This document shows positions 6,523-47,424 of a DNA stretch of 47,424 nucleotides, piece after piece. The notes under the pieces were generated by a model. The model worked only from the letters and a program-made list of their open reading frames with translations, was not told the DNA's origin and made no database searches. A program made the translations under genes and the position numbers. Source of the DNA: a virus; IMG/VR virus record IMGVR_UViG_3300004369_000028, positions 1 to 47,424 of that record; one strand, given 5' to 3'. Numbering within the stretch: the stretch's first letter is position 1; each line of letters begins with the position of its first letter.

Positions 6523-6828
6523 TTAGTCGTATTCTTTTCGGTCCTGTTGGTTTTCGTACCCGTATCTGTAGGCTTCAATCTCACCGACTGTCATGTTATC
6601 CTTTTCAACACGTTCTGAGTCATAGGTACCGCCAGTATAGTAGTGAGGGTCATAACTGCGACCATAGTATGCGTCAGCACCGCCACGATCCTGTGGGGAG
6701 CCATGACGAGGTAAATCGTCAAGACGGATAACGTCATCACTGTATCCCATTTTTCTTATGTCCTCTTCTGTGTAAAAATACCACTGTCCGTCTTCTCCCA
6801 CATATGCTTGTCCTACTACTTTATCCAT
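6523..6828 (-). CDS. hypothetical protein
   Basis: 101-aa track ORF rich in Tyr, Asp and Gly. Confidence 0.5.
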   Translation of the reverse strand: MDKVVGQAYVGEDGQWYFYTEEDIRKMGYSDDVIRLDDLPRHGSPQDRGGADAYYGRSYDPHYYTGGTYDSERVEKDNMTVGEIEAYRYGYENQQDRKEYD

Positions 6829-7184
6829 TGAATTGCTCCTTTCTTTTCCTGATTCGTATATAGACTGACGAACTTAACACTGTCAAGAGGTTTTTTTGAT
6901 GCTGTATCAACAAATGTTTCGTACTTGTACGGATTGTACGTTGCATAACCATGCTGACCAATTTCTGCTAGGGGGAAACCCATAGGTGCTAGGTAGCCAC
7001 GCACAAATGCATGTACGTTCTTACGTTTCTCTTGTAGAACCTTACGACGACCAGACTGACGGACGACAAATTTGGCATCTTTTATGTCTACTGCTGCCGT
7101 ATGTGCTATCACTCGTCCTGTCTTGCAGTTACGTACACTAAAGCAGTGTTTGTGCAGGTTCCAATATACTTCTACTTTTTCCAT
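6816..7184 (-). CDS. hypothetical protein, first gene of the leftward arm
   Basis: 122 aa (MEKVEVYWNLHKHCFSVRN...KNVHAFVRGY). AGGAAAGGA lies about 10 nt upstream of the ATG on the minus strand. Confidence 0.6.
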   Translation of the reverse strand: MEKVEVYWNLHKHCFSVRNCKTGRVIAHTAAVDIKDAKFVVRQSGRRKVLQEKRKNVHAFVRGYLAPMGFPLAEIGQHGYATYNPYKYETFVDTASKKPLDSVKFVSLYTNQEKKGAIQWIK

Positions 7185-7198
7185 CGTCGGGGTCCTTT

Positions 7199-7302
7199 CC
7201 TATTTCCACTGAGGGGGTTGATCTACGAATTACTACCATATTTCCACTGGTGGGGTCAATCCTTATTTCCACTGAGGGGGTTCTTATTTCCACTGAGGGG
7301 GT
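7199..7302 (+). repeat. four copies of a 20-bp motif CYTATTTCCACTGAGGGGGT
   Basis: Copies are at 7199..7218, 7237..7256 (variant CATATTTCCACTGGTGGGGT), 7262..7281 and 7283..7302. The last two are tandem with a 21-bp period. Confidence 0.9.
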
Positions 7303-7354
7303 CTGGTGTGACTTTTTAGCCACATATTCAATTTTATGCATGTAATCATAGGTT

Positions 7355-7546
7355 GTGTATACCATTGCATACACTCGTAAAAGTTGTGTGACATTTTTGC
7401 AACACCATGTGATATTTTTGCCACAGTGACATTTTTGTGACAGTGTGACTTTTATACCACAGTGACTTTTGTGCCACAGTGACAATTATGCAACAGTGAC
7501 ATTTTTGCAACACACAACCATAAGGTGTGTATACAATTGCATACAC
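7355..7546. repeat. array of seven ~17-bp direct repeats flanked by two 20-bp near-palindromes
   Basis: The flanks are GTGTATACCATTGCATACAC (7355..7374) and GTGTATACAATTGCATACAC (7527..7546). Between them, GTGAC(A)TTTT(T)G-type units start at 7388, 7409, 7426, 7445, 7462, 7479 and 7496. Confidence 0.9.
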
Positions 7547-7607
7547 AACCTGACTTTTCGATTGCCCATCCTTCCACCTTTTGCGACTGCGTTTTAAAAA
7601 AACTCGC

Positions 7608-8034
7608 CCTTAGGTTGTGCTGGTTTTGAGCCTCTTTTCGGGCCTTGACTAACCCTACCACGTACCCAAAAGATATTCAAGCACTAATTCGGATATAAGA
7701 AAACTATACTTTCGGATAGGTCACCGCCAGTGCAACCTTAGGTTGTATCTTGCAACTTTTTACAACCTATACGTGCAAACTGGGCAAATAACCTTAGGTT
7801 GTATTTTGTTTTTGTTTACAACCTTAGGTTGTACTGGGCGACACATTGACGAAAGTATGTATTTGATCCGAAAGGATAGTTTGCCTATCCAATAGGTCGA
7901 TTTTTGGGATAAAGCCGATTTTATGGCCTAGGGTACCAGAAAACCCTTTCGGCCCTGTACGGGCCTTTTTGGGGCCTCTACGGCGATTTCTGCTTTAACG
8001 GGTATTTATCTGACAAAATACAACCCTAGGTTGA
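7608..8034. promoter_or_regulatory. cluster of ACAACC-N3-GGTTGT inverted-repeat (operator-like) sites
   Basis: Full sites are GCAACCTTAGGTTGT (7732..7746), TAACCTTAGGTTGT (7789..7802) and ACAACCTTAGGTTGT (7818..7832). Partial or variant sites are CCTTAGGTTGT (7608..7618) and ACAACCCTAGGTTGA (8020..8034). A degenerate ACAACCATAAGGTGT lies at 7514..7528. Confidence 0.7.
7951..7970 (+). terminator. small hairpin plus T-run (terminator-like)
   Basis: GGCCC-TGTAC-GGGCC followed by TTTTT, inside the non-coding hub. Confidence 0.3.
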
Positions 8035-14911: not shown

Positions 14912-16512
<1,601 letters not shown>

Positions 16513-16513
<1 letters not shown>

Positions 16514-16929: not shown

Positions 16930-17451
16930 ATGCTTAAAAGATTAAATCCCGACCCAGAAGTTTGTAAAATACTGGCAAAATTTATACTAGACACTAAAAT
17001 GTTTTGGAGTCTTAAAGATAGTGGTTTAGAAAAAATGTCTGTGGAAGAGTGGAAAACTTTCAAACCCACAGGAAATTTTGATATACCGAGAGCAACCAAT
17101 TGTGTTAATCTTGCACCTGATACGATGGCTAGGAAAAAGTTGCAACACGTGGCCGACATGATTGGTGCTACAAGACTAACCAATTACAACTACTATCCTA
17201 AAGGAAACTACCTTACTTGGCATACAAACTCTGATGTACAAGGTATGAGAACTTACTACAGTTTTTGCTCTGGTGGTTATTCTTGTTTTAGATATATTGA
17301 CCCAGACACTAAAGAAATTATAGATGTTGTTGACAACAAGGGTTGGAACGTAAATCAGTTTACAGTAAGCAAAGAAAAACCTCTTTGGCACACTGTATAT
17401 AGTGATACACGGAGATTCTCTTTTGGATTCAATACAGAAAAACATACTTGA
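16930..17451 (+). CDS. hypothetical protein, possibly cupin/2OG-Fe(II)-oxygenase fold
   Basis: 173 aa. NYLTWHTNSD ... PLWHTVYSDTRRFSFGF resembles an H-x-(D/N)...H...R-x-S arrangement, but the match is weak. Confidence 0.35.
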   Translation: MLKRLNPDPEVCKILAKFILDTKMFWSLKDSGLEKMSVEEWKTFKPTGNFDIPRATNCVNLAPDTMARKKLQHVADMIGATRLTNYNYYPKGNYLTWHTNSDVQGMRTYYSFCSGGYSCFRYIDPDTKEIIDVVDNKGWNVNQFTVSKEKPLWHTVYSDTRRFSFGFNTEKHT

Positions 17452-18265
17452 CTTTAGAAATACACGAAAAGAACAACCAGTAAAGTCTTATCTTACAAAA
17501 CCCTATACAAGAGTTCTTGTTGCGGCTGGAGACAATTGGTCAAGGCTTTGTTATGACAAAGAACCTAAACTTAACCAAGTGTCATTTACTGGTGGATTTG
17601 GTTATTACAATCATTTCCGTTTTAGTTCTTCTGGTGATTATGTTTTAAGGTTTAGAAACCCTGTTAAATCTTATTTCCATGAAGCCCCACCAAACGACGA
17701 ACTGCTTAATCACTTTAGGGGGCTAAACTTAAAAAAGTATTCGAGTGGAGAAAAAATATTTAATAAGCAACGACCTTTTGATTTGTTTGGTTTACAGCAT
17801 ATTTTACATAAAATGTTTTCTTGGCAAAGAAGTTTTCTATCTCAAATACAAAACTATACTGTAATTGCTGGTCACCCTGCTTACACAGAAGAGGAAAATC
17901 ACAATTACTTTAATGCACTAAAAAGTGTTATACCACACCTTGATGAACTTTGTGAGTTAGCCGTTGGTTATGATTTAGATGATTTAATAGATAAATGTGA
18001 TACTTTTTATACTCACGATAGTGCATCTATGGTACCTGCTGTTATAAGAGGTAAAAGAGTTTCCGCACTAGCAGTAAACCCTTGGTCAGACATTGTTTGG
18101 AAACAACCAAGGGTTGTGCCTGAAAAAGAATTATCTCAGTTTCTTAATTGGTGGTACAACAGGGTTGTTATAGACCTTGATAAAGAGGATTATAAAGAAC
18201 GTATAAACCATAGAGTTAGTTACCTAGTTGAAGGTGGTAATGAGGATGACTTATGGAAATGGTGA
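17402..18265 (+). CDS. hypothetical protein
   Basis: 287-aa track ORF in the enzyme cassette. No motif was recognised, and the start is uncertain (50-nt overlap upstream). Confidence 0.5.
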   Translation: MIHGDSLLDSIQKNILDFRNTRKEQPVKSYLTKPYTRVLVAAGDNWSRLCYDKEPKLNQVSFTGGFGYYNHFRFSSSGDYVLRFRNPVKSYFHEAPPNDELLNHFRGLNLKKYSSGEKIFNKQRPFDLFGLQHILHKMFSWQRSFLSQIQNYTVIAGHPAYTEEENHNYFNALKSVIPHLDELCELAVGYDLDDLIDKCDTFYTHDSASMVPAVIRGKRVSALAVNPWSDIVWKQPRVVPEKELSQFLNWWYNRVVIDLDKEDYKERINHRVSYLVEGGNEDDLWKW

Positions 18266-18960
18266 AAATATTTATAGGTTATGACCCTGACGAAACTGTG
18301 GCTTATCACACCCTTGTTCAATCTATCATGGACACATCTAGTGTTCCTGTAAGTATAACCCCACTTTCATTGTCGCACTTAGGTTTTTGGGACAGACCAA
18401 GAGACAGTAGGCAGTCAAACGACTTTTCTTATACTAGGTTTCTAGTACCTTATCTTTGTAATTACATGGGTACAGCAATTTATATGGATTGCGACATGTT
18501 GGTTCTTAGTGATATTGCAGAATTAAACGACTTGTGTAAAACTGACAAAGCTGTACATGTAGTAAAACATGATTATGTTCCAAAAGATGAATATAAATAT
18601 CTTGGTAGGAAACAATACTCTTACCCAAGAAAAAATTGGTCTTCTTTTATAGTATGGAATAGTAATAACAAAAGCAACTGGAAACTAAATCCCGAACTGA
18701 TAAAAAAAGAAACAGGTTCCTATCTTCACAGATTTAGCTGGCTAAAAGACGACGAAATTGGTGAGTTAGACCCAAAGTGGAACTGGCTTGTTGGTGAGTA
18801 TTCAAATCCCCCAAAAGACGTTAAGAATGTACACTGGACTAATGGGGGTCCTTATTTTAAGGACTATGATACAGCAGACTTTAGTGACGAGTGGAATAAA
18901 ACCAAACAAAAAGTAAATTATTGCAAGGACCCGACATGCAACAAGAACAACCAAATATAA
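18253..18960 (+). CDS. glycosyltransferase family 8-like
   Basis: 235 aa. It has a DxD in AIYMDCDMLVLSDIAEL and a C-terminal VHWTNGGPYF resembling the GT8 H-x-x-G-x-x-KPW region. Confidence 0.7.
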   Translation: MEMVKIFIGYDPDETVAYHTLVQSIMDTSSVPVSITPLSLSHLGFWDRPRDSRQSNDFSYTRFLVPYLCNYMGTAIYMDCDMLVLSDIAELNDLCKTDKAVHVVKHDYVPKDEYKYLGRKQYSYPRKNWSSFIVWNSNNKSNWKLNPELIKKETGSYLHRFSWLKDDEIGELDPKWNWLVGEYSNPPKDVKNVHWTNGGPYFKDYDTADFSDEWNKTKQKVNYCKDPTCNKNNQI

Positions 18961-19502
18961 GACATTTATTTGCTTTGGCACCTAGTGCTGTACCAAATAA
19001 TACTATTGAAGCAATAGAGAAGTTAGTAGAAGAACGTGGATTAGAACCAGCAACTACTTTCGGTGGAGAAAACAAAAACGTAAGACGATCAAATGTGTGT
19101 TGGTTGTCAGATCAAATTTGGATTCGTGATTATTTATACAATTGGGTGCAAAAGGCAAAAAGAGGTTTATTTAACTTCGATGTTGAAAACTTTGCTGACA
19201 TTCAGTACACAGAGTATTCAGCAGAAGATGAAGGACATTACGATTGGCATCACGATGTAAACTTTCAGACACCTGATATGTGGGACCGTAAGTTAAGTCT
19301 CACTGTCCAACTATCTGACCCATCTGAATACATGGGTGGCGAGTTTCAAATTAGGGATTACGAAGGTTATTTACCCATACAATCAAAACAAAAAGGCTCC
19401 ATATTGGTATTTCCTTCATACCTTGTACATAAGGTAAATCCTGTAATTGAAGGTAAACGTAAGTCTCTTGTATTGTGGTACGAGGGTCCAAGATGGCGGT
19501 AA
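18921..19502 (+). CDS. 2OG-Fe(II) oxygenase, prolyl-4-hydroxylase-like
   Basis: 193 aa with the motifs HYDWHHD (HxD), RKLSLTVQLSDPSEYMGGEF and FPSYLVHKVNPVIEGKRKSLVLW (H...R). Confidence 0.8.
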   Translation: MQGPDMQQEQPNIRHLFALAPSAVPNNTIEAIEKLVEERGLEPATTFGGENKNVRRSNVCWLSDQIWIRDYLYNWVQKAKRGLFNFDVENFADIQYTEYSAEDEGHYDWHHDVNFQTPDMWDRKLSLTVQLSDPSEYMGGEFQIRDYEGYLPIQSKQKGSILVFPSYLVHKVNPVIEGKRKSLVLWYEGPRWR

Positions 19503-20044
19503 ATAAGTTTTTTGTAGAAATAGGTGCAGCAAACTTTGATACACTTTTAAATCTGGCTAAACAGGGTTGGTCGGGTATTGTTGTTGAGCCTGTGCCATAT
19601 CTGTCTAAAGAACTTTCTACTATGTTTGAAGGTCTTGATGTGCATGTTTATGATGGTGCCATATCAGATTTTTACGGAACGGTTACTATGGCTGTGGGAG
19701 AAAACGAGGGTTGGTTGACTGGTGCCTCTCATATTATAGATGATCACAGTATTGGGTTTAAACTTAGTTCCCACGAAAAAAACAAATACAGGTTCCAAGA
19801 GAAAATTCAAGTTAAATGTATAACATTGGACGACTTGTTAAAAGACATAGATCATATAGACTTTATGAAGGTTGATGTAGAGGGGCATGAACTTAATATC
19901 TTTAGGAATTATTCTTTTAGGGTAAAGCCTAATTTTATTAAGGTTGAACATAAGCACGTTGATGACATAGAGTTAAAGTCTATTTTAGAGGATAAGGGAT
20001 ATATAGTCTGGACCGAACCTGACGATATTTATGCGGTATGTTAA
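19493..20044 (+). CDS. FkbM-family methyltransferase
   Basis: Track ORF 19475..20044 trimmed to MAVNKFFVEIGAANFD. The hallmark is IDFMKVDVEGHELNIF. Confidence 0.85.
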   Translation: MAVNKFFVEIGAANFDTLLNLAKQGWSGIVVEPVPYLSKELSTMFEGLDVHVYDGAISDFYGTVTMAVGENEGWLTGASHIIDDHSIGFKLSSHEKNKYRFQEKIQVKCITLDDLLKDIDHIDFMKVDVEGHELNIFRNYSFRVKPNFIKVEHKHVDDIELKSILEDKGYIVWTEPDDIYAVC

Positions 20045-21864
20045 TCTATCAAATATCTCTCAATTGTGATGCTTATGATGCACGTAATAAAACTTGGGAA
20101 GAAATGATAGCCGAAACTGGCAAGCAACCAGATTTTGAATGGAAGAACCCTGATATGGGCGAAAGGCCATTACTAAAAGGTGAGTATGGATGTGCTATTA
20201 GTCACCTAAGAGTTTGGGAAAAGATTGCCCGTAGTGGTTTAAATGGTATAATTTTAGAAGAAGATGCAGTTTTCAAAGAGATTAACCCTTACTATGTAGA
20301 CCATAAGCTAGAGGACTACGACAGTGTTTGGCTTGGGTACAACAAGAACACTTTTGGTTATTGGTATAATTGTCACGCATATGCTATAACACCTGATACA
20401 GCACATAAGTTAATGGATAATTTTCATAAGATTATACCTGTTGATGAATACGTACCAGTACAATTAAAACATAGTAGAAACTATTTTTATGAGCCAGCTA
20501 CAGTTTGGCAAATACCCCGTGAAATCCGACCTAGCACTATTGAGGAACCCGAAATGGAAAATGAAGAAGATATAAATTTCCACATTGTAACCGTAGCCAC
20601 AGACGAAAAAAAGATGTGGGCTTTAGAAAAAACAGCAGAACGGTATAATCTTAATGTACACAACTTAGGTAAAAACTCATCTTGGTATGACCCAATGACA
20701 GGTCATGCAGGTATGCCTAAAATTGACATGATGATTGAGTTTACAAAAGATTTACCAGCCGACGACATTGTTCTTTTTATGGACGGTTATGACACCTTTT
20801 TTGCCGACGACCCAATTGCCATACTAGAAAGGTGGAAGGGTTTTGACGTAGATATTTTATTTGGTGCAGAAGATAATTTCTGGCCCCCAGATGATTTTTT
20901 GCAGAAACAGTTCGATACGCACCACTCAGACACGGTATACCCCTATTTAAACAGTGGTTTATATATGGGATATGCTGGAGCAATCTACGCATTCCTAACT
21001 GAACAAGCAGCAGGTGATGGAGATGATGATCAACGGTATTGTCAAATACGGTACTTAGCACGTACACCCCCACCAAAAGATGCACCTATACAGTGGAAAT
21101 GGGAACGAATAGACTTTCCTTATAAAATTGCTATGGACCATGAAGCATACTTGTTTCAGAACCATGATATGACTGTTAAGAGAGTTAATGGTCAACTTTA
21201 TAACCCCCGAACAAACTGTTGTCCTTGTATATATCATGGCAATGGGGGAGAAGGGGCTAAGGAAAAGTTTAAAGATTTGTTGTTAGAGTTTAATGTAACT
21301 GAAAAAGCACAAGCACCTTACATTATGACTTTAGATTACGAAGTTGTAGCTAACGAAATTATTGTAACCCCTTTCTTATCAGAACCACAATGTCAATGGC
21401 TAATTGAAAAGTCTGAATTACACGGTGGTTGGCGTGGTATGGATGGTGACAAGTTTCCAGCACGTGAGATACGACTACGTGAACTTGGTTTGTGGGATGA
21501 ATATGATAGGCTATGGCGTGAAAAGCTATCTAAAGTAGCAGAAAAACATTGGCAAGGATATGCTTATGAGGGTCTGCGTGATGCTTTTACAATGAAGTAT
21601 ACTTTAGATACACAAACAAGTTTAGCCCTTCATACAGATGGCTCTATGGTTACTGGAAGTGTTAAACTAAATGATGATTACGAGGGGGCAGAGTTAATAT
21701 TCCCCCGTCAGAGGTTTAGTAACATTGATGTACCAGTGGGACATTGTATATTATTTCCTAGTATGGTTACTCATGCTCACTACGTTAGTGAACTAACCCG
21801 TGGTGAAAAGTATAGTCTAACAATGTGGACCTCACGTCAACCTAATGATGTAGCATTTAGCTAG
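20038..21864 (+). CDS. tri-domain enzyme: GT25-like glycosyltransferase + LH3(PLOD)-like glycosyltransferase + lysyl-hydroxylase-like 2OG-Fe(II) oxygenase
   Basis: 608 aa. Residues 1-170 carry LLKGEYGCAISHLRVWEKI...GIILEEDAVF (GT25). Residues 181-320 carry FHIVTVATDEKK...FMDGYDTFF...LFGAEDNFWPP...YLNSGLYMGYA (compare LH3 VTVAT / VDSYDVI / LFSAESFCWP / FLNSGGFIGFA). Residues 440-608 carry LALHTDGS...NDDYEGAELIFPRQ...THAHYVSELTRGEKYSLTMW (HxD...H...K). Confidence 0.8.
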   Translation: MLIYQISLNCDAYDARNKTWEEMIAETGKQPDFEWKNPDMGERPLLKGEYGCAISHLRVWEKIARSGLNGIILEEDAVFKEINPYYVDHKLEDYDSVWLGYNKNTFGYWYNCHAYAITPDTAHKLMDNFHKIIPVDEYVPVQLKHSRNYFYEPATVWQIPREIRPSTIEEPEMENEEDINFHIVTVATDEKKMWALEKTAERYNLNVHNLGKNSSWYDPMTGHAGMPKIDMMIEFTKDLPADDIVLFMDGYDTFFADDPIAILERWKGFDVDILFGAEDNFWPPDDFLQKQFDTHHSDTVYPYLNSGLYMGYAGAIYAFLTEQAAGDGDDDQRYCQIRYLARTPPPKDAPIQWKWERIDFPYKIAMDHEAYLFQNHDMTVKRVNGQLYNPRTNCCPCIYHGNGGEGAKEKFKDLLLEFNVTEKAQAPYIMTLDYEVVANEIIVTPFLSEPQCQWLIEKSELHGGWRGMDGDKFPAREIRLRELGLWDEYDRLWREKLSKVAEKHWQGYAYEGLRDAFTMKYTLDTQTSLALHTDGSMVTGSVKLNDDYEGAELIFPRQRFSNIDVPVGHCILFPSMVTHAHYVSELTRGEKYSLTMWTSRQPNDVAFS

Positions 21865-21873
21865 GAGAAATAA

Positions 21874-23280
21874 ATGTTTGGTAGTGGCAGTTTTGCTGGA
21901 TCGCCCTTTTCTTCTGAGGGTGAATTAAAGTATGAGATTTCTGGCACTACCTTAACAAGTGGTTCGCCATCTGTAGACACAGCAGATATAACAGAAAACA
22001 ATAGTCTGTCATCACTTGAAAACCTAGAAGCAGGTAACCCAAGTCTTAGTGCAACGGCTATAGAGCAAGATCATCAAATCAGTTCCCCAGACTTAGATAC
22101 TGGCTCTCCTTCTGTATCTCTTGCTACAATTCAAGAGGGTGAATCGTTTTCATCTAGTGAATTGGTTACTGGTACACCTACAATGGGTACACCAGAAATA
22201 GACCAAGACCATAAAATTAATACTGGTACTATTTCTACTGGGGGAGTTAGTGTTTCTTCTGCAACAATGCAAGAAGACGAAACTCTTTCTACCAGCAATC
22301 TAAACTCTGGTTCTGTAGTTATTGACACAGCCGCATTTAACCTTTCAGCACCTTTGTTTTCTCCTGATGTAGAAACTGGTAATCCTGTAGTTGGTACTAC
22401 TTCATTTGACCAAGACCAGACTTTAGAAACTAATGAACTTTACACAGGTGACCCTGTTGTAGATTCTGCAACAATGCAAGAAGACGAAACTCTTGCTGGT
22501 AATACTTTCACTACAGACTTACCACAAGTCGGTTCGCCTACAATAGTACAAAATCACGATCTATCAACGAGTGATGTTGATACTGGTAATGCAGAAGTAC
22601 CATCCTCTACAATGCAAGAGGGCGAAACACTATCTACCAGTAATTTAGAAACTGGTAATATATCAATAGTTTCTATATCTATTGATCAAGATCACGTACT
22701 TAACTGTTCTGACTTAGATACAAACGAAGTTTCTTTGCCTACTGCTACTATGCAGGAAGAAGAGACACTATCTGCACAAGAATTAGTAATAAACGACCCA
22801 GAAACACCTTCTGCTGATTTTGTACAAGGACATGAACTTTCTTCTGCTAACTTAAACACAGAACCAACTGTAGTTCCAAATGCAGTTATGCAGGAAGATG
22901 AAACCTTCTCTACTACTGCACTAGAAACAGGACAAGTATCAGTACCATCTGCCACAATGCAGGAAGATGAAACTCTTACTGTAAGCAACTTAGATGCAGG
23001 TTCTACTGTAATAACTGTAGACTTTACACAAGGTCATACACTTGCAGCAGAAGGTCCAACTACAGCAGGTGTGCCAGAGGTTGACCGTTCTACGATACTT
23101 GGGGATCACAACTTTACACAACAAGAGTTTTTGACAAACTCTCATGTTTTAGACGAACCTTTCTTTAATCCAGCAATAGCAAGAGTAGTTTCTATTACTG
23201 CTAAAGCAGGATCAAGGGCTGTATTTAAACAACAAAATAAAGTTACATTTAACGAGAGTAATAAGGTTAAGGTAGGATAA
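21874..23280 (+). CDS. repeat protein (~23-aa units, fibre-like)
   Basis: 468 aa. Alternating units of type x-A-T-M-Q-E-D-E-T-L-S-x-S-N-L-x-T-G and x-I-D-Q-D-H-x-L-x-x-x-D-L-D-T-G occur about 14-15 times. An exact 30-bp DNA repeat lies at 22258..22287 and 22465..22494. Confidence 0.7.
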   Translation: MFGSGSFAGSPFSSEGELKYEISGTTLTSGSPSVDTADITENNSLSSLENLEAGNPSLSATAIEQDHQISSPDLDTGSPSVSLATIQEGESFSSSELVTGTPTMGTPEIDQDHKINTGTISTGGVSVSSATMQEDETLSTSNLNSGSVVIDTAAFNLSAPLFSPDVETGNPVVGTTSFDQDQTLETNELYTGDPVVDSATMQEDETLAGNTFTTDLPQVGSPTIVQNHDLSTSDVDTGNAEVPSSTMQEGETLSTSNLETGNISIVSISIDQDHVLNCSDLDTNEVSLPTATMQEEETLSAQELVINDPETPSADFVQGHELSSANLNTEPTVVPNAVMQEDETFSTTALETGQVSVPSATMQEDETLTVSNLDAGSTVITVDFTQGHTLAAEGPTTAGVPEVDRSTILGDHNFTQQEFLTNSHVLDEPFFNPAIARVVSITAKAGSRAVFKQQNKVTFNESNKVKVG

Positions 23281-46983: not shown

Positions 46984-47424
46984 TTAGTGGATTTCTGCAT
47001 AAGTCTTTCCGAATTGTACATCAATGCCAAGTGGTACATTGAGTTGTAGTTCTTGATTTACATTGTCGATAGCCATGTTCATAACATTCTCTACTTTATC
47101 CTCGTCGCCCTCTTCTGTTAGTACGATAACTTCATCATGGAACTGACCTATAGTCTGTAGGCCCATACCACGACACTGCATAACCCAATTGTCAAAACAG
47201 TATACACCTGTTGATTGGTTCAGGGTGCTAAACCTGTCCTTGTCACTTCGCAAAGAATACCAGAAACCAGACACAGGATTATAAAGCCATTTATAGCCAA
47301 ATAACTCTCTTGTACGTGCATCTTTGCTTACCTTCTCAATAGACCAGTTACGTGACCAGAATGCGTCTAGCAGGGCCTGTGCTTTGTCTACAGTCATACC
47401 AGAGTTACGTGATAGGGTCTGACT
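46984..47424 (-). CDS. DNA polymerase family A, C-terminal part (same gene as 1..1491)
   Basis: Track ORF 46984..47397 (...QFHDEVIV...GKTYAEIH) contains motif C and the C-terminus. Positions 47326..47424 duplicate 1..99. Confidence 0.9.
   Translation of the reverse strand, partial: SQTLSRNSGMTVDKAQALLDAFWSRNWSIEKVSKDARTRELFGYKWLYNPVSGFWYSLRSDKDRFSTLNQSTGVYCFDNWVMQCRGMGLQTIGQFHDEVIVLTEEGDEDKVENVMNMAIDNVNQELQLNVPLGIDVQFGKTYAEIH
47326..47424. repeat. exact 99-bp duplicate of 1..99 (circular closure overlap)
   Basis: Base-by-base comparison of both ends: GCTTACCTTCTCAATAGACC...GATAGGGTCTGACT. Confidence 0.95.

Follow-up and report, generated by a model that had tools for sequence, protein, structure and literature searches.

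Sugar-bearing hydroxylysine (Hyl) counts as a hallmark of animal collagens, with one viral outpost, mimivirus. There, L230 joins a GT25-like N-terminus to a PLOD-like C-terminus (PMC9614988), and its GT25-like and lysyl hydroxylase (LH) domains hydroxylate and glycosylate viral collagen, a second sugar being added by R699, which resembles the PLOD glycosyltransferase (GT) (PMC9614988, PMC9546862). The GT25-like domain of L230 transfers glucose and not galactose (PMC9614988), and for R699 the preferred acceptor may be Glc-Hyl (PMC12279948). Our literature searches found no paper describing the three-domain family reported here, and no report of hydroxylysine in phage fibres, of its glycosylation or of a phage lysyl hydroxylase.

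Here we describe a predicted fusion enzyme of a marine phage, encoded in a window of 47,424 nt, the whole stretch of viral DNA that was analysed (IMG/VR record IMGVR_UViG_3300004369_000028). We consider it somewhat probable that this enzyme modifies the phage's own collagen-like fibre (14912-16513) post-translationally in the infected cell. In the mechanism that we propose, the LH domain would use Fe(II), 2-oxoglutarate (2OG) and O2 to convert the lysine of X-Lys-Gly in unfolded Gly-X-Y chains into 5-hydroxylysine. The GT25 domain, a Mn-dependent GT-A enzyme of the inverting type whose putative general base is D136, would attach a first hexose to the hydroxyl thus formed, and the central PLOD-type GT, retaining and with a Mn-binding DxxD, would add a second one. 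The end product on the fibre would be hexosyl-hexosyl-hydroxylysine, the phage counterpart of the animal Glc-Gal-Hyl. From domain homology, conserved catalytic residues, the fold and the genomic linkage to fibres with lysine at Y we infer the three activities, the order of the reactions, the sugar identities and the fibre as substrate. A previous sequence-only reading of this DNA had specified Glc-Gal-hydroxylysine as the product; its three domain types stand and its sugar identities go beyond what sequence can tell, since the L230 GT25-like domain uses glucose and R699 may prefer Glc-Hyl, which leaves hexose-hexose-Hyl as the most that can be deduced.

Like L230, the phage protein is viral, has a GT25-like domain fused N-terminal to an LH domain and has, presumably, its own collagen-like protein as target. 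The LH domain of L230 is the closest solved structure to the phage LH domain, and the middle domain closely resembles R699. Unlike in Mimiviridae, where R699 supplies the second GT as a protein of its own, three catalytic domain types lie in one chain of 608 aa; also, the host is a bacterium instead of an amoeba, and the fusion gene adjoins the gene of its presumed substrate. The L230-type architecture was judged on the named Tupanvirus orthologue P0320, which contains GT25 and LH and gives no PLOD GT match even at E<=1, in agreement with the earlier contrast to L230 as an LH with a single GT. P0320 has an AC-like region and no PLOD GT, whereas the phage protein has a PLOD GT and no AC domain.

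Domain architecture and conserved residues

The gene (20038..21864, plus strand) is complete, starts with ATG and encodes a GT25-like, a PLOD-GT-like and an LH-like domain. The ATG lies within the 3' end of the upstream FkbM methyltransferase gene, the two genes sharing 7 nt around the stop of the latter, and it is preceded by an in-frame stop six codons 5', so that the ORF is not extendable N-terminally; a longer N-terminus through an upstream start is excluded by this stop and by the conserved N-terminus of the family (M-A-[ILV]-[IV]-Y-Q-I-S-L). The three-domain call made from sequence is borne out by Pfam, by PDB sequence searches and by a confident AlphaFold model, and every motif quoted for it is present in the translation (EED at 74-76, D249/D252, GDGDDDQ at 326-332, H532/D534, HAH at 579-581 and K591). 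A lack of profile matches to GT25 or PLOD families had been named as a possible objection; both families match well above what chance would give, GT_PLOD (PF25342) with E 3e-31 (109 bits; cut-off 27) and Glyco_transf_25 (PF01755) with E 5e-12 (46.5 bits; cut-off 24). Searching the PDB with the 608-aa protein (phmmer) retrieved human LH3 at E 1e-22 over its GT and LH domains, and also mimivirus R699, the L230 LH domain and COLGALT1. With the family profile the values were 7e-52 for LH3, 5e-32 for R699, 9e-13 for L230-LH and about 2e-21 for COLGALT1 (1.6e-21 across profile positions 12-152). The AlphaFold model (pLDDT 85.9) consists of three confident domains with short linkers between them, and its Foldseek match to LH3 has an E-value of 1.6e-25.

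Residue roles in the human enzymes were taken from PMC12987934 and PMC12003778 for COLGALT1 and from PMC6082870 for LH3, the numbering of LH3 H253 and N255 being our own count on the LH3 sequence. In family alignments of 22 and 56 sequences that reach down to 40% identity, the residues essential in the human enzymes, by mutagenesis or structures, are invariant or at least 90% conserved. Mean pairwise identity within the family is 65% for the GT25 domain, 52% for the PLOD-type GT and 69% for the LH domain; the acidic linker after the GT25 domain (aa 170-179; 20545..20574, plus strand) is poorly conserved, with 22% identity and pLDDT below 50 at residues 170-177. As judged from these identities, purifying selection acts on all three domains.

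The LH-type 2OG/Fe(II) dioxygenase domain (aa 431-604; 21328..21849, plus strand) was recognised by Pfam, PDB search and Foldseek. The Pfam match, to 2OG-FeII_Oxy_3, lies slightly below its cut-off of 27 (24.2 bits, E 7e-5), and the Foldseek alignment to the L230 LH domain (rmsd 1.6-1.8 A, TM 0.75-0.77) denotes a double-stranded beta-helix fold. H532-x-D534 and H581 correspond to the Fe triad H667/D669/H719 of LH3 and Y521 to Y656, all of them invariant. Unlike in LH3, where R729 forms a salt bridge to the C5 carboxylate of 2OG, the phage family has an invariant lysine, K591, a replacement that seems chemically plausible.

The central PLOD/LH3-type catalytic GT domain (aa 180-404; 20575..21249, plus strand) was likewise assigned by Pfam, PDB search and Foldseek. 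Its fold resembles that of LH3 (6wfv; TM 0.79, rmsd 3.8 A), and R699 is matched with E 5e-14. D249-G-Y251-D252 corresponds to D112-x-Y114-D115 of LH3, that is, the Mn-binding DxxD with the uridine-stacking Y114; W216 corresponds to the likewise uridine-stacking W75, and H400-G-N402 to H253-G-N255, with H253 in the Mn site. These residues, together with E278 and N305, are invariant or at least 90% conserved. W282, the equivalent of the W145 gate, is invariant, as are D330 and D331 of D330-D331-Q332, which aligns to D190-D191-Q192. The LH3 parallels first noticed in the sequence (DxxD, the W145 equivalent, poly-Asp, HxD, the distal His and Lys for the 2OG-binding Arg) therefore hold in a proper alignment.

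Taken against human LH3/PLOD3 (PDB 6FXK), the phage protein shares the GT fold, its Mn site of DxxD and His, the Y114/W75 stack, the W145 gate and D190/D191, as well as the Fe triad, the Y656 equivalent and the order of GT and LH. Unlike LH3, it bears an extra N-terminal GT25 domain and Lys for R729, and it is phage-encoded and cytoplasmic, with no signal peptide or ER context. No Pfam match to the AC domain (PF13704) was obtained in the 608-aa protein, and only about 26 residues separate GT and LH where LH3 has about 260.

The GT25/COLGALT-like GT-A domain (aa 1-169; 20038..20544, plus strand), was identified by Pfam, PDB search and the family alignment. The Foldseek match of COLGALT1 to the model has an rmsd of 2.9 A. 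As in the GT2/CGT domain of COLGALT1/GLT25D1 (PDB 9EVJ, 9U7H), a uridine pocket, a YW motif and counterparts of the E-D-D motif, D522 and E523 are present. A12, G48, G51 and C52 correspond to the uridine pocket residues A374, G408, G411 and C412, with A12-Y-D-A aligned to A374-V-D-G, and E74-E75-D76 aligns to the Mn/ribose motif E435-D436-D437, in which the two metal ligands, E74 and D76, are invariant. The ribose-binding middle residue differs from COLGALT1 in being Glu in the phage clade of the 608-aa protein; it is Asp in S-CAM9. In the phmmer alignment, Y108-W109 equals the acceptor motif Y494-W495 and is at least 90% conserved, and the invariant D136-E137 equals the catalytic base D522 and E523, the latter anchoring the Hyl amino group in COLGALT1 (PMC12987934). 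A DxD, D93-Y-D95, was spotted by eye as the counterpart of D461-W-D463. Unlike COLGALT1, the phage protein has no non-catalytic GT1 domain and no insertion of about 24 residues after the DxD, and the lid loop of COLGALT1, with its Ser/Thr, could not be confidently aligned to it. The galactose moiety is unresolved in COLGALT1 catalytic-site structures (PMC12003778).

The first beta-alpha unit of GT25 (profile positions 1-33), present in COLGALT1, is lacking from the GT25 domain of this clade, and in the 608-aa protein the Pfam match spans only positions 34-101; other clades keep the unit, since S-CAM9, P0122, P0127 and P0352 match from profile position 1 or 3 to 196 or 198. In COLGALT1 this beta1-alpha1 unit carries L348, which stacks on uracil, R351, which anchors the lid loop, and R354, which contacts the pyrophosphate and whose change to Ala strongly cuts activity (PMC12987934). 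Because the unit with L348, R351 and R354 is missing, GT25 activity is less certain than was assumed when the protein was first read as a complete pathway enzyme; of that claim, the three catalytic domain types stand. The enzyme of this clade could be only bifunctional, with an active LH and PLOD-type GT and the shortened GT25 serving as a non-catalytic binding or scaffolding module; the product would be Hyl that is bare or carries a single sugar, unless a different enzyme supplied the first one, for which the GT8-family glycosyltransferase encoded in the same block of the window (18253..18960, plus strand, 235 aa) is a candidate. Degenerate GT domains are known in both human enzymes, the AC domain of LH3 and GT1 of COLGALT1 (PMC6082870, PMC12003778). 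We nevertheless regard such a bifunctional enzyme as unlikely. Few parts of the protein are as well conserved as the GT25 domain, which has 38 invariant columns besides its high mean identity, and exactly the catalytic set has been kept (E-E-D, D136, E137, Y108-W109 and G48/G51/C52/A12); the GT8 gene, moreover, was found in none of the related loci fetched. A decaying GT25 remnant was also judged unlikely, because the domain is conserved as well as the LH domain.

Genomic context and candidate substrate

The strongest functional evidence, missed in the sequence-only reading, is an adjacent collagen-like fibre gene whose lysines lie solely at Y. This gene (14912..16513, plus strand, 533 aa; Pfam Collagen E 7e-59) lies 3.5 kb 5' of the fusion gene. 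Its collagen region (aa 90-470; nt 15179-16321) has 127 Gly-X-Y triplets, in which all 30 lysines occupy Y and the sequence G-[A/S]-K-G-Q-K-G occurs 14 times; other residues are mostly Thr at Y (74) and Pro at X (55). Animal LH and COLGALT1 have as their substrate consensus a lysine at Y with Gly after it (PMC12987934). In related IMG/VR loci, lysine was counted 1376 times at Y and never at X in 5256 triplets, and Pro almost never occurs at Y in the phage collagens.

The linkage is widespread and has a direction. In a sample of 80 IMG/VR loci, which are not independent and many of which are closely related, 38 have 4 kb or more of sequence on the upstream side, and in 36 of these a same-strand collagen run lies there (median distance 1.7 kb); lysine-bearing runs were found in 35 of 37 upstream flanks and in none of 38 downstream flanks. 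Linkage to fibres with lysine at Y extends across distant phage lineages: collagen genes accompany the enzyme gene in CRP-6 (gp60) and in the myophage S-CAM9 (gp222), and a 142-kb phage contig that encodes a remote member of the family shows the order fibre, tail-fibre chaperone, enzyme. Based on this context and on its sequence, the fibre encoded at 14912-16513 is the probable substrate of the fusion enzyme. Since the fusion gene adjoins a collagen-like fibre gene, phage fibres may carry animal-style, sugar-decorated Hyl.

Other genes of the block suggest that the real product may be more complex. They are a PKHD-type 2OG/Fe(II) oxygenase (18921..19502, plus strand, 193 aa), the FkbM-family methyltransferase (19475..20044, plus strand, 189 aa) and the GT8 already mentioned. 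The first two are frequent companions: of the 91 fetched loci that were searched, almost all belonging to the 80 IMG/VR loci, 28 have the oxygenase immediately 5' of the fusion gene and 41 have the methyltransferase next to it on either side. As a paralogue of the LH domain the 193-aa oxygenase was rejected (BLASTP E 0.08; PDB matches to PKHD/PiuC-type hydroxylases). Similarly, the 138-aa ORF after the collagen gene was considered as a tail-fibre chaperone of the CRP-6/L083 type, and no similarity was detected. Just 3' of the fusion gene, the window encodes a repeat protein (468 aa) that is conserved and has this position in 60 loci; its repeats are seen at the protein level only, as Tandem Repeats Finder reported none in the gene.

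This repeat protein bears on a further explanation, which we find improbable: the dioxygenase might hydroxylate Pro, Asp/Asn or Thr instead of lysine, or the target of the enzyme might be the host envelope or LPS or another virion protein, for example the repeat protein itself. Existing labels would allow it, being merely generic 2OG-Fe(II) oxygenase or hypothetical protein in PHROGs and GenBank and, for some members, 'GR25 family glycosyltransferase involved in LPS biosynthesis' at JGI, and prolyl hydroxylases appear among the weaker Foldseek matches. However, those prolyl hydroxylases mostly superpose at 6-8 A, whereas in both sequence and fold the C-terminal domain comes closest to lysyl hydroxylases (L230 LH, rmsd 1.6 A, TM 0.76). 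The repeat protein has very few lysines, the GT25 domain retains the YW and E523 features that hold Hyl in COLGALT1, and the collagen linkage, with lysine at Y only and Pro almost absent from it, is asymmetric and almost universal.

Family distribution and four-domain relatives

The 608-aa protein is not alone in fusing three catalytic domain types; by homology it belongs to a large phage family. A homologue search found 425 relatives, and among the best 120 of these, 118 measure 573-620 aa and the other two 539 and 555 aa. Relatives are encoded in 459 IMG/VR loci, and full-length matches occur in 11 GenBank phage records, the isolates including roseophage CRP-6 and the Synechococcus myophages, S-CAM9, S-PRM1 and S-8S53/55/56. 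That frameshifts in sequencing or assembly have merged two or three separate genes into this ORF, a doubt raised from the outset, is ruled out for practical purposes by full-length homologues in IMG/VR loci, GenBank phages and protein clusters (more than 100 cluster representatives of 573-620 aa), by the identical protein on three independent contigs and by a model with three confident domains and short linkers. In cellular genomes, search patterns specific to the clade retrieved only four small MAG/SAG contigs among 185,579 species genomes, and because of that specificity distant cellular relatives are still possible.

Metagenomic four-domain proteins of about 870-1100 aa (e.g. P0221 and P0285), with the architecture GT25-GT_PLOD-AC-LH, share the three catalytic domain types of the phage protein and their order. 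Unlike the phage protein, they carry the AC domain (PF13704 in P0221 and P0285) and retain Arg for 2OG; they sit on large contigs that resemble giant-virus genomes (529 kb; XPG, SWIB and DnaJ genes), and no collagen gene was found within 8 kb of them.

Significance

Returning to the phage fibre as target, we tentatively propose a general reading, possible and still short of probable, in which tailed phages of marine bacteria and cyanobacteria put disaccharide-bearing Hyl on their collagen-like fibres in the cytoplasm by one polypeptide of about 600 residues, following the path Lys, Hyl, hexosyl-Hyl and dihexosyl-Hyl. The full predicted enzyme set would then be one compact protein in common marine phages, encoded beside its likely substrate, and, if this is true, the smallest complete collagen-lysine modification machine known. 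As CRP-6, S-CAM9 and S-PRM1 have been cultured, mass spectrometry of their virions is feasible. Mimivirus L230 has been proposed for hydroxylating and glycosylating recombinant collagen made in E. coli (PMC9546862), and the phage enzyme, if it acts as predicted, may provide a single-gene tool for the same purpose. The family also offers natural experiments on the roles of the PLOD accessory domain and of the N-terminal unit of GT25, and it bears on the origin of the collagen-modification pathway. If our reading is correct, collagen-lysine chemistry would reach into the cytoplasm of bacteria and the virions of their phages.

Results

The window begins and ends with the same 99 nt (1-99 and 47326-47424, an exact repeat), as is characteristic of a circularly closed assembly, and so is a complete phage genome of ~47.3 kb. 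It codes for a terminase, a Mu-type portal, an XkdF-type protease, a major capsid protein and tail proteins. ORF 20038-21864 (+) begins with ATG and encodes a 608-aa enzyme; an in-frame stop lies six codons 5' of this ATG, which makes a 7-nt overlap with the stop of the preceding gene, encoding an FkbM methyltransferase. The nearest cultured relative is gp58 of Roseobacter phage CRP-6, with 57% identity.

The sequence-only reading had proposed that this polypeptide joins a GT25-like domain, a PLOD-type glycosyltransferase (GT) and a lysyl hydroxylase (LH). All the motif strings quoted in its support were found in the 608-aa translation at the positions claimed, and both the three-domain architecture and the catalytic motifs proved right by Pfam, PDB sequence and profile searches, Foldseek on a structural model and family alignments. 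Pfam matched Glyco_transf_25 at aa 11-82 (E 5e-12), GT_PLOD at aa 180-404 (E 3e-31) and 2OG-FeII_Oxy_3 at aa 529-598 (E 7e-5; 24.2 bits, under the cut-off of 27). By phmmer, the PDB matches were the GT and LH domains of human LH3 (PLOD3; E 1e-22), mimivirus R699, the LH domain of mimivirus L230 and the human GT25 enzyme COLGALT1. A family profile of 56 sequences retrieved LH3 (7e-52), R699 (5e-32) and L230-LH (9e-13), while a profile of the N-terminal domain matched COLGALT1 with E 1.6e-21; outside the collagen-lysine enzymes, the PDB sequence searches gave few and weak matches (PiuC-type hydroxylases, bacterial GT25). The AlphaFold2 model, built from the family alignment (mean pLDDT 85.9), resolves into three folded domains, with a linker that is disordered at residues 170-177. 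Foldseek aligned it with full-length LH3 (E 1.6e-25), the isolated LH3 GT domain (TM 0.79), R699, the L230 LH domain (rmsd 1.6-1.8 A, TM 0.75-0.77) and COLGALT1 (rmsd 2.9 A); prolyl hydroxylases fitted the C-terminal domain far more poorly, with rmsd mostly of 6-8 A.

We compared experimentally important residues with their counterparts in two family alignments, one of 56 sequences and one of 22 (CRP-6 and S-CAM9 among them); the counterparts proved invariant or at least 90% conserved. In the LH domain, Y521, H532, D534 and H581 correspond in the phmmer alignment to LH3 Y656, H667, D669 and H719, whose roles are known (PMC6082870), and an invariant K591 replaces the 2OG-binding R729. In the PLOD-type GT, D249-x-Y251-D252 corresponds to LH3 D112/Y114/D115, W216 to W75, W282 to the W145 gate and D330-D331 to D190-D191; E278, N305 and H400-G-N402 are also conserved. 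Scietti et al. linked W145 and the poly-Asp run specifically to the glycosyltransferase activity of LH3 (PMC6082870). In the GT25 domain, A12, G48, G51 and C52 correspond to the COLGALT1 uridine pocket A374/G408/G411/C412, E74-E75-D76 to the E435-D436-D437 motif (with Glu for its middle Asp), Y108-W109 to Y494-W495, and D136-E137 to D522, the general base, and E523, which anchors the hydroxylysine amino group (PMC12987934, PMC12003778). By eye, D93-Y-D95, the hydrophobic residues after it and G100 match COLGALT1 D461-W-D463...G468, a region where the HMM alignment is ambiguous. Mean pairwise identity reaches 65% in GT25, 52% in GT_PLOD and 69% in LH against 22% in the linker, so that purifying selection acts on all three domains.

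Could the fusion be a frameshift artefact joining separate genes? Full-length relatives in the protein database, in IMG/VR and in GenBank phages establish that it is real. We found 425 homologues in the protein database; among the best 120, 118 measure 573-620 aa (the others 539 and 555 aa) and 119 carry the same Pfam pair, the GT25 match being absent in one. A relative is encoded at 459 IMG/VR loci, and 11 GenBank phage records contain full-length matches, including the Synechococcus myophages S-CAM9, S-PRM1 and S-8S53/55/56 at ~38% identity. The GenBank phage matches are labelled 'hypothetical protein' or '2OG-Fe(II) oxygenase', and the PHROGs family, phrog_61, also bears the latter name. 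Searched exhaustively, the 50%-identity representatives yielded 2053 relatives, many of them three-domain proteins of 600-690 aa with identity down to 26%, together with GT_PLOD+LH (~417 aa), GT25+GT_PLOD (~440 aa), lone LH and 870-1100-aa forms. Within 185,579 cellular species genomes, searched with clade-specific patterns, matches fell on four small MAG/SAG contigs only. The single-cell assembly of Prochlorococcus sp. AG-402-I21 has a 31.6-kb contig with a relative that consists of the LH domain alone (49% identity to aa 421-604), at 27-578 of locus L091 and thus at the margin of the fetched part; it probably derives from an infecting or integrated phage.

A six-frame scan revealed a 127-triplet Gly-X-Y region at 15179-16321, within ORF 14912-16513 (+), which encodes a 533-aa fibre protein matching Pfam Collagen (E 7e-59) and PHROG tail-fibre families. 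All 30 Lys of the collagen region are at Y, and G-[A/S]-K-G-Q-K-G occurs 14 times. The consensus of animal lysyl hydroxylases and COLGALT1 is a Y-position Lys followed by Gly, and GAKGEKG was a peptide used in the COLGALT1 study (PMC12987934). The remaining Y positions are mostly Thr (74 of the 127 triplets, with G-P-T dominant) and X is mostly Pro (55), Pro being found only in X. Opposite the collagen gene, the long antisense ORFs 14932-15465 and 15677-16183 (-) encode GPV repeats; we rejected them as genes, since the GGN-CCN-ACN composition of the repeats produces them.

Such linkage recurs in sipho- or podo-like roseophages and in cyanomyophages. Of the 80 IMG/VR loci fetched, which are not independent samples, 38 extend 4 kb or more upstream of the enzyme gene, and 36 of these have a same-strand collagen run there (median distance 1.7 kb). 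Across all collagen runs of these 80 loci (5256 triplets), Lys occupies Y 1376 times and X 0 times. With the flanks as internal control, Lys-bearing runs were upstream in 35/37 loci and downstream in 0/38; one of the two loci without such an upstream run has two short GQKGQKGDKGQKG segments there. In CRP-6 the order is gp60 'tail fiber', an APC-like chaperone and the enzyme, and in myophage S-CAM9 the gp222 tail fibre is ~2.3 kb upstream of it. On another phage contig, of 142 kb, the gene of a distant family member likewise comes after those of a fibre with two GQKGEKGQKG segments and, next, a Phage_tail_APC chaperone.

Discussion

The adjoining fibre with Lys at Y greatly strengthens the functional reading of the enzyme, of which it is the probable substrate. 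We propose that the LH domain would hydroxylate Y-position Lys of unfolded fibre chains, that the GT25 domain would then add a first hexose by an inverting reaction with D136 as base, and that the PLOD-type GT domain would add a second by a retaining one. What we observed is homology, conserved residues, a shared fold and the linkage of the genes; from these we infer each of the activities, their order and the sugars. The interpretation first proposed is thus partly supported, its Glc-Gal product being only one candidate: the GT25-like domain of L230 adds glucose (PMC9614988) and R699 may prefer Glc-Hyl (PMC12279948).

Confidence in the GT25 activity of the window protein is moderate, mainly because the beta1-alpha1 unit is missing. 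In its clade (the window, CRP-6 and the representative P0022) the GT25 profile is matched only from position 34 or 51; S-CAM9 (gp218) and the relatives P0122, P0127 and P0352 match it over 1/3-196/198. The profile alignment places A12-Y-D-A on COLGALT1 A374-V-D-G with equal spacing to the G-E-x-G-C helix, and therefore ~22-24 N-terminal residues, equivalent to beta1-alpha1 of the GT-A fold, are absent. Three COLGALT1 residues belong to this unit: L348, which stacks on uracil, R351, which anchors the lid loop, and R354, which contacts the pyrophosphate; the R354A mutation strongly reduces activity (PMC12987934). With the in-frame stop so close, no coding sequence 5' of the ATG could supply it. 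The other active-site residues are strongly conserved, which speaks for a shortened domain that still works.

The neighbouring genes suggest a larger conserved fibre-modification module, perhaps with a second hydroxylation and methylation: among 91 loci that were fetched and searched, the PKHD/PiuC-type 2OG oxygenase (18921-19502, +, in the window) immediately precedes the enzyme gene in 28, and the FkbM methyltransferase (19475-20044, +) adjoins it in 41. The same block holds a GT8-family glycosyltransferase (18253-18960, +; phrog_28018), with no counterpart in the related loci fetched and no PDB sequence match, possibly a strain-specific extra glycosylation step. Given these companions, the final modification may be more elaborate than a disaccharide. 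The G-P-T triplets of the fibre resemble those of Bacillus BclA, whose GPT repeats bear O-linked glycans on Thr; it is possible that fibre Thr is glycosylated by GT8 or carries methylated sugars.

Other neighbours deserve mention. Directly 3' of the enzyme gene, and conserved there in 60 related loci, 21874-23280 (+) encodes a 468-aa Ser/Thr/Glu-rich protein with very few Lys and no Pfam or PHROG match; its degenerate ~23-residue repeat (…MQEDETLS…, spacing 23/46/69 aa) is invisible to Tandem Repeats Finder at the DNA level. Between the fibre gene and the enzymes, ORFs 16930-17451 (173 aa) and 17402-18265 (287 aa), both (+) and lacking a family match, recur as a pair in five related loci (L007, L049, L054, L061 and L063). 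In the S-CAM9 locus (L002), two separate 2OG-Fe(II) oxygenase genes at 6710-7875 precede the enzyme gene and more are nearby; they form the tandem dioxygenase array that Iyer et al. (2010) described in cyanophages, part of which may serve fibre modification.

Animal PLODs are arranged GT-AC-LH, AC being the accessory domain PF13704, and COLGALT1 is GT1-GT2, whereas the phage family is GT25-GT_PLOD-LH without AC. In mimivirus the work is shared out between R699 and L230, the latter having a GT25-like N-terminus and a PLOD-like C-terminus. The contrast drawn earlier with L230, as LH plus one GT, holds: a Tupanvirus protein of the L230 type combines GT25 with LH and shows no PLOD GT domain even at E<=1. 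We also found uncharacterised four-domain GT25-GT_PLOD-AC-LH proteins; one of them, P0221, aligns through residues 221-894 with LH3 from one end to the other (E 1e-94). Two such proteins, of 893 and 896 aa, are encoded at L086 8001-10682 (a 529-kb ENA contig) and L087 8001-10691, with no collagen gene within 8 kb; these large contigs are giant-virus-like in look (XPG, SWIB, DnaJ and T5orf172 genes). Phages are thus not alone in uniting all three catalytic domains in a single polypeptide, but the compact fusion claimed at the outset is unique to them.

Full-text literature searches returned no paper on a phage lysyl hydroxylase/glycosyltransferase fusion or on hydroxylysine in phage fibres. The predictions of Iyer et al. 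(2010) include collagen-like proteins of bacteria as substrates of dioxygenases, but not this enzyme family. The family is directly testable in cultured phages.
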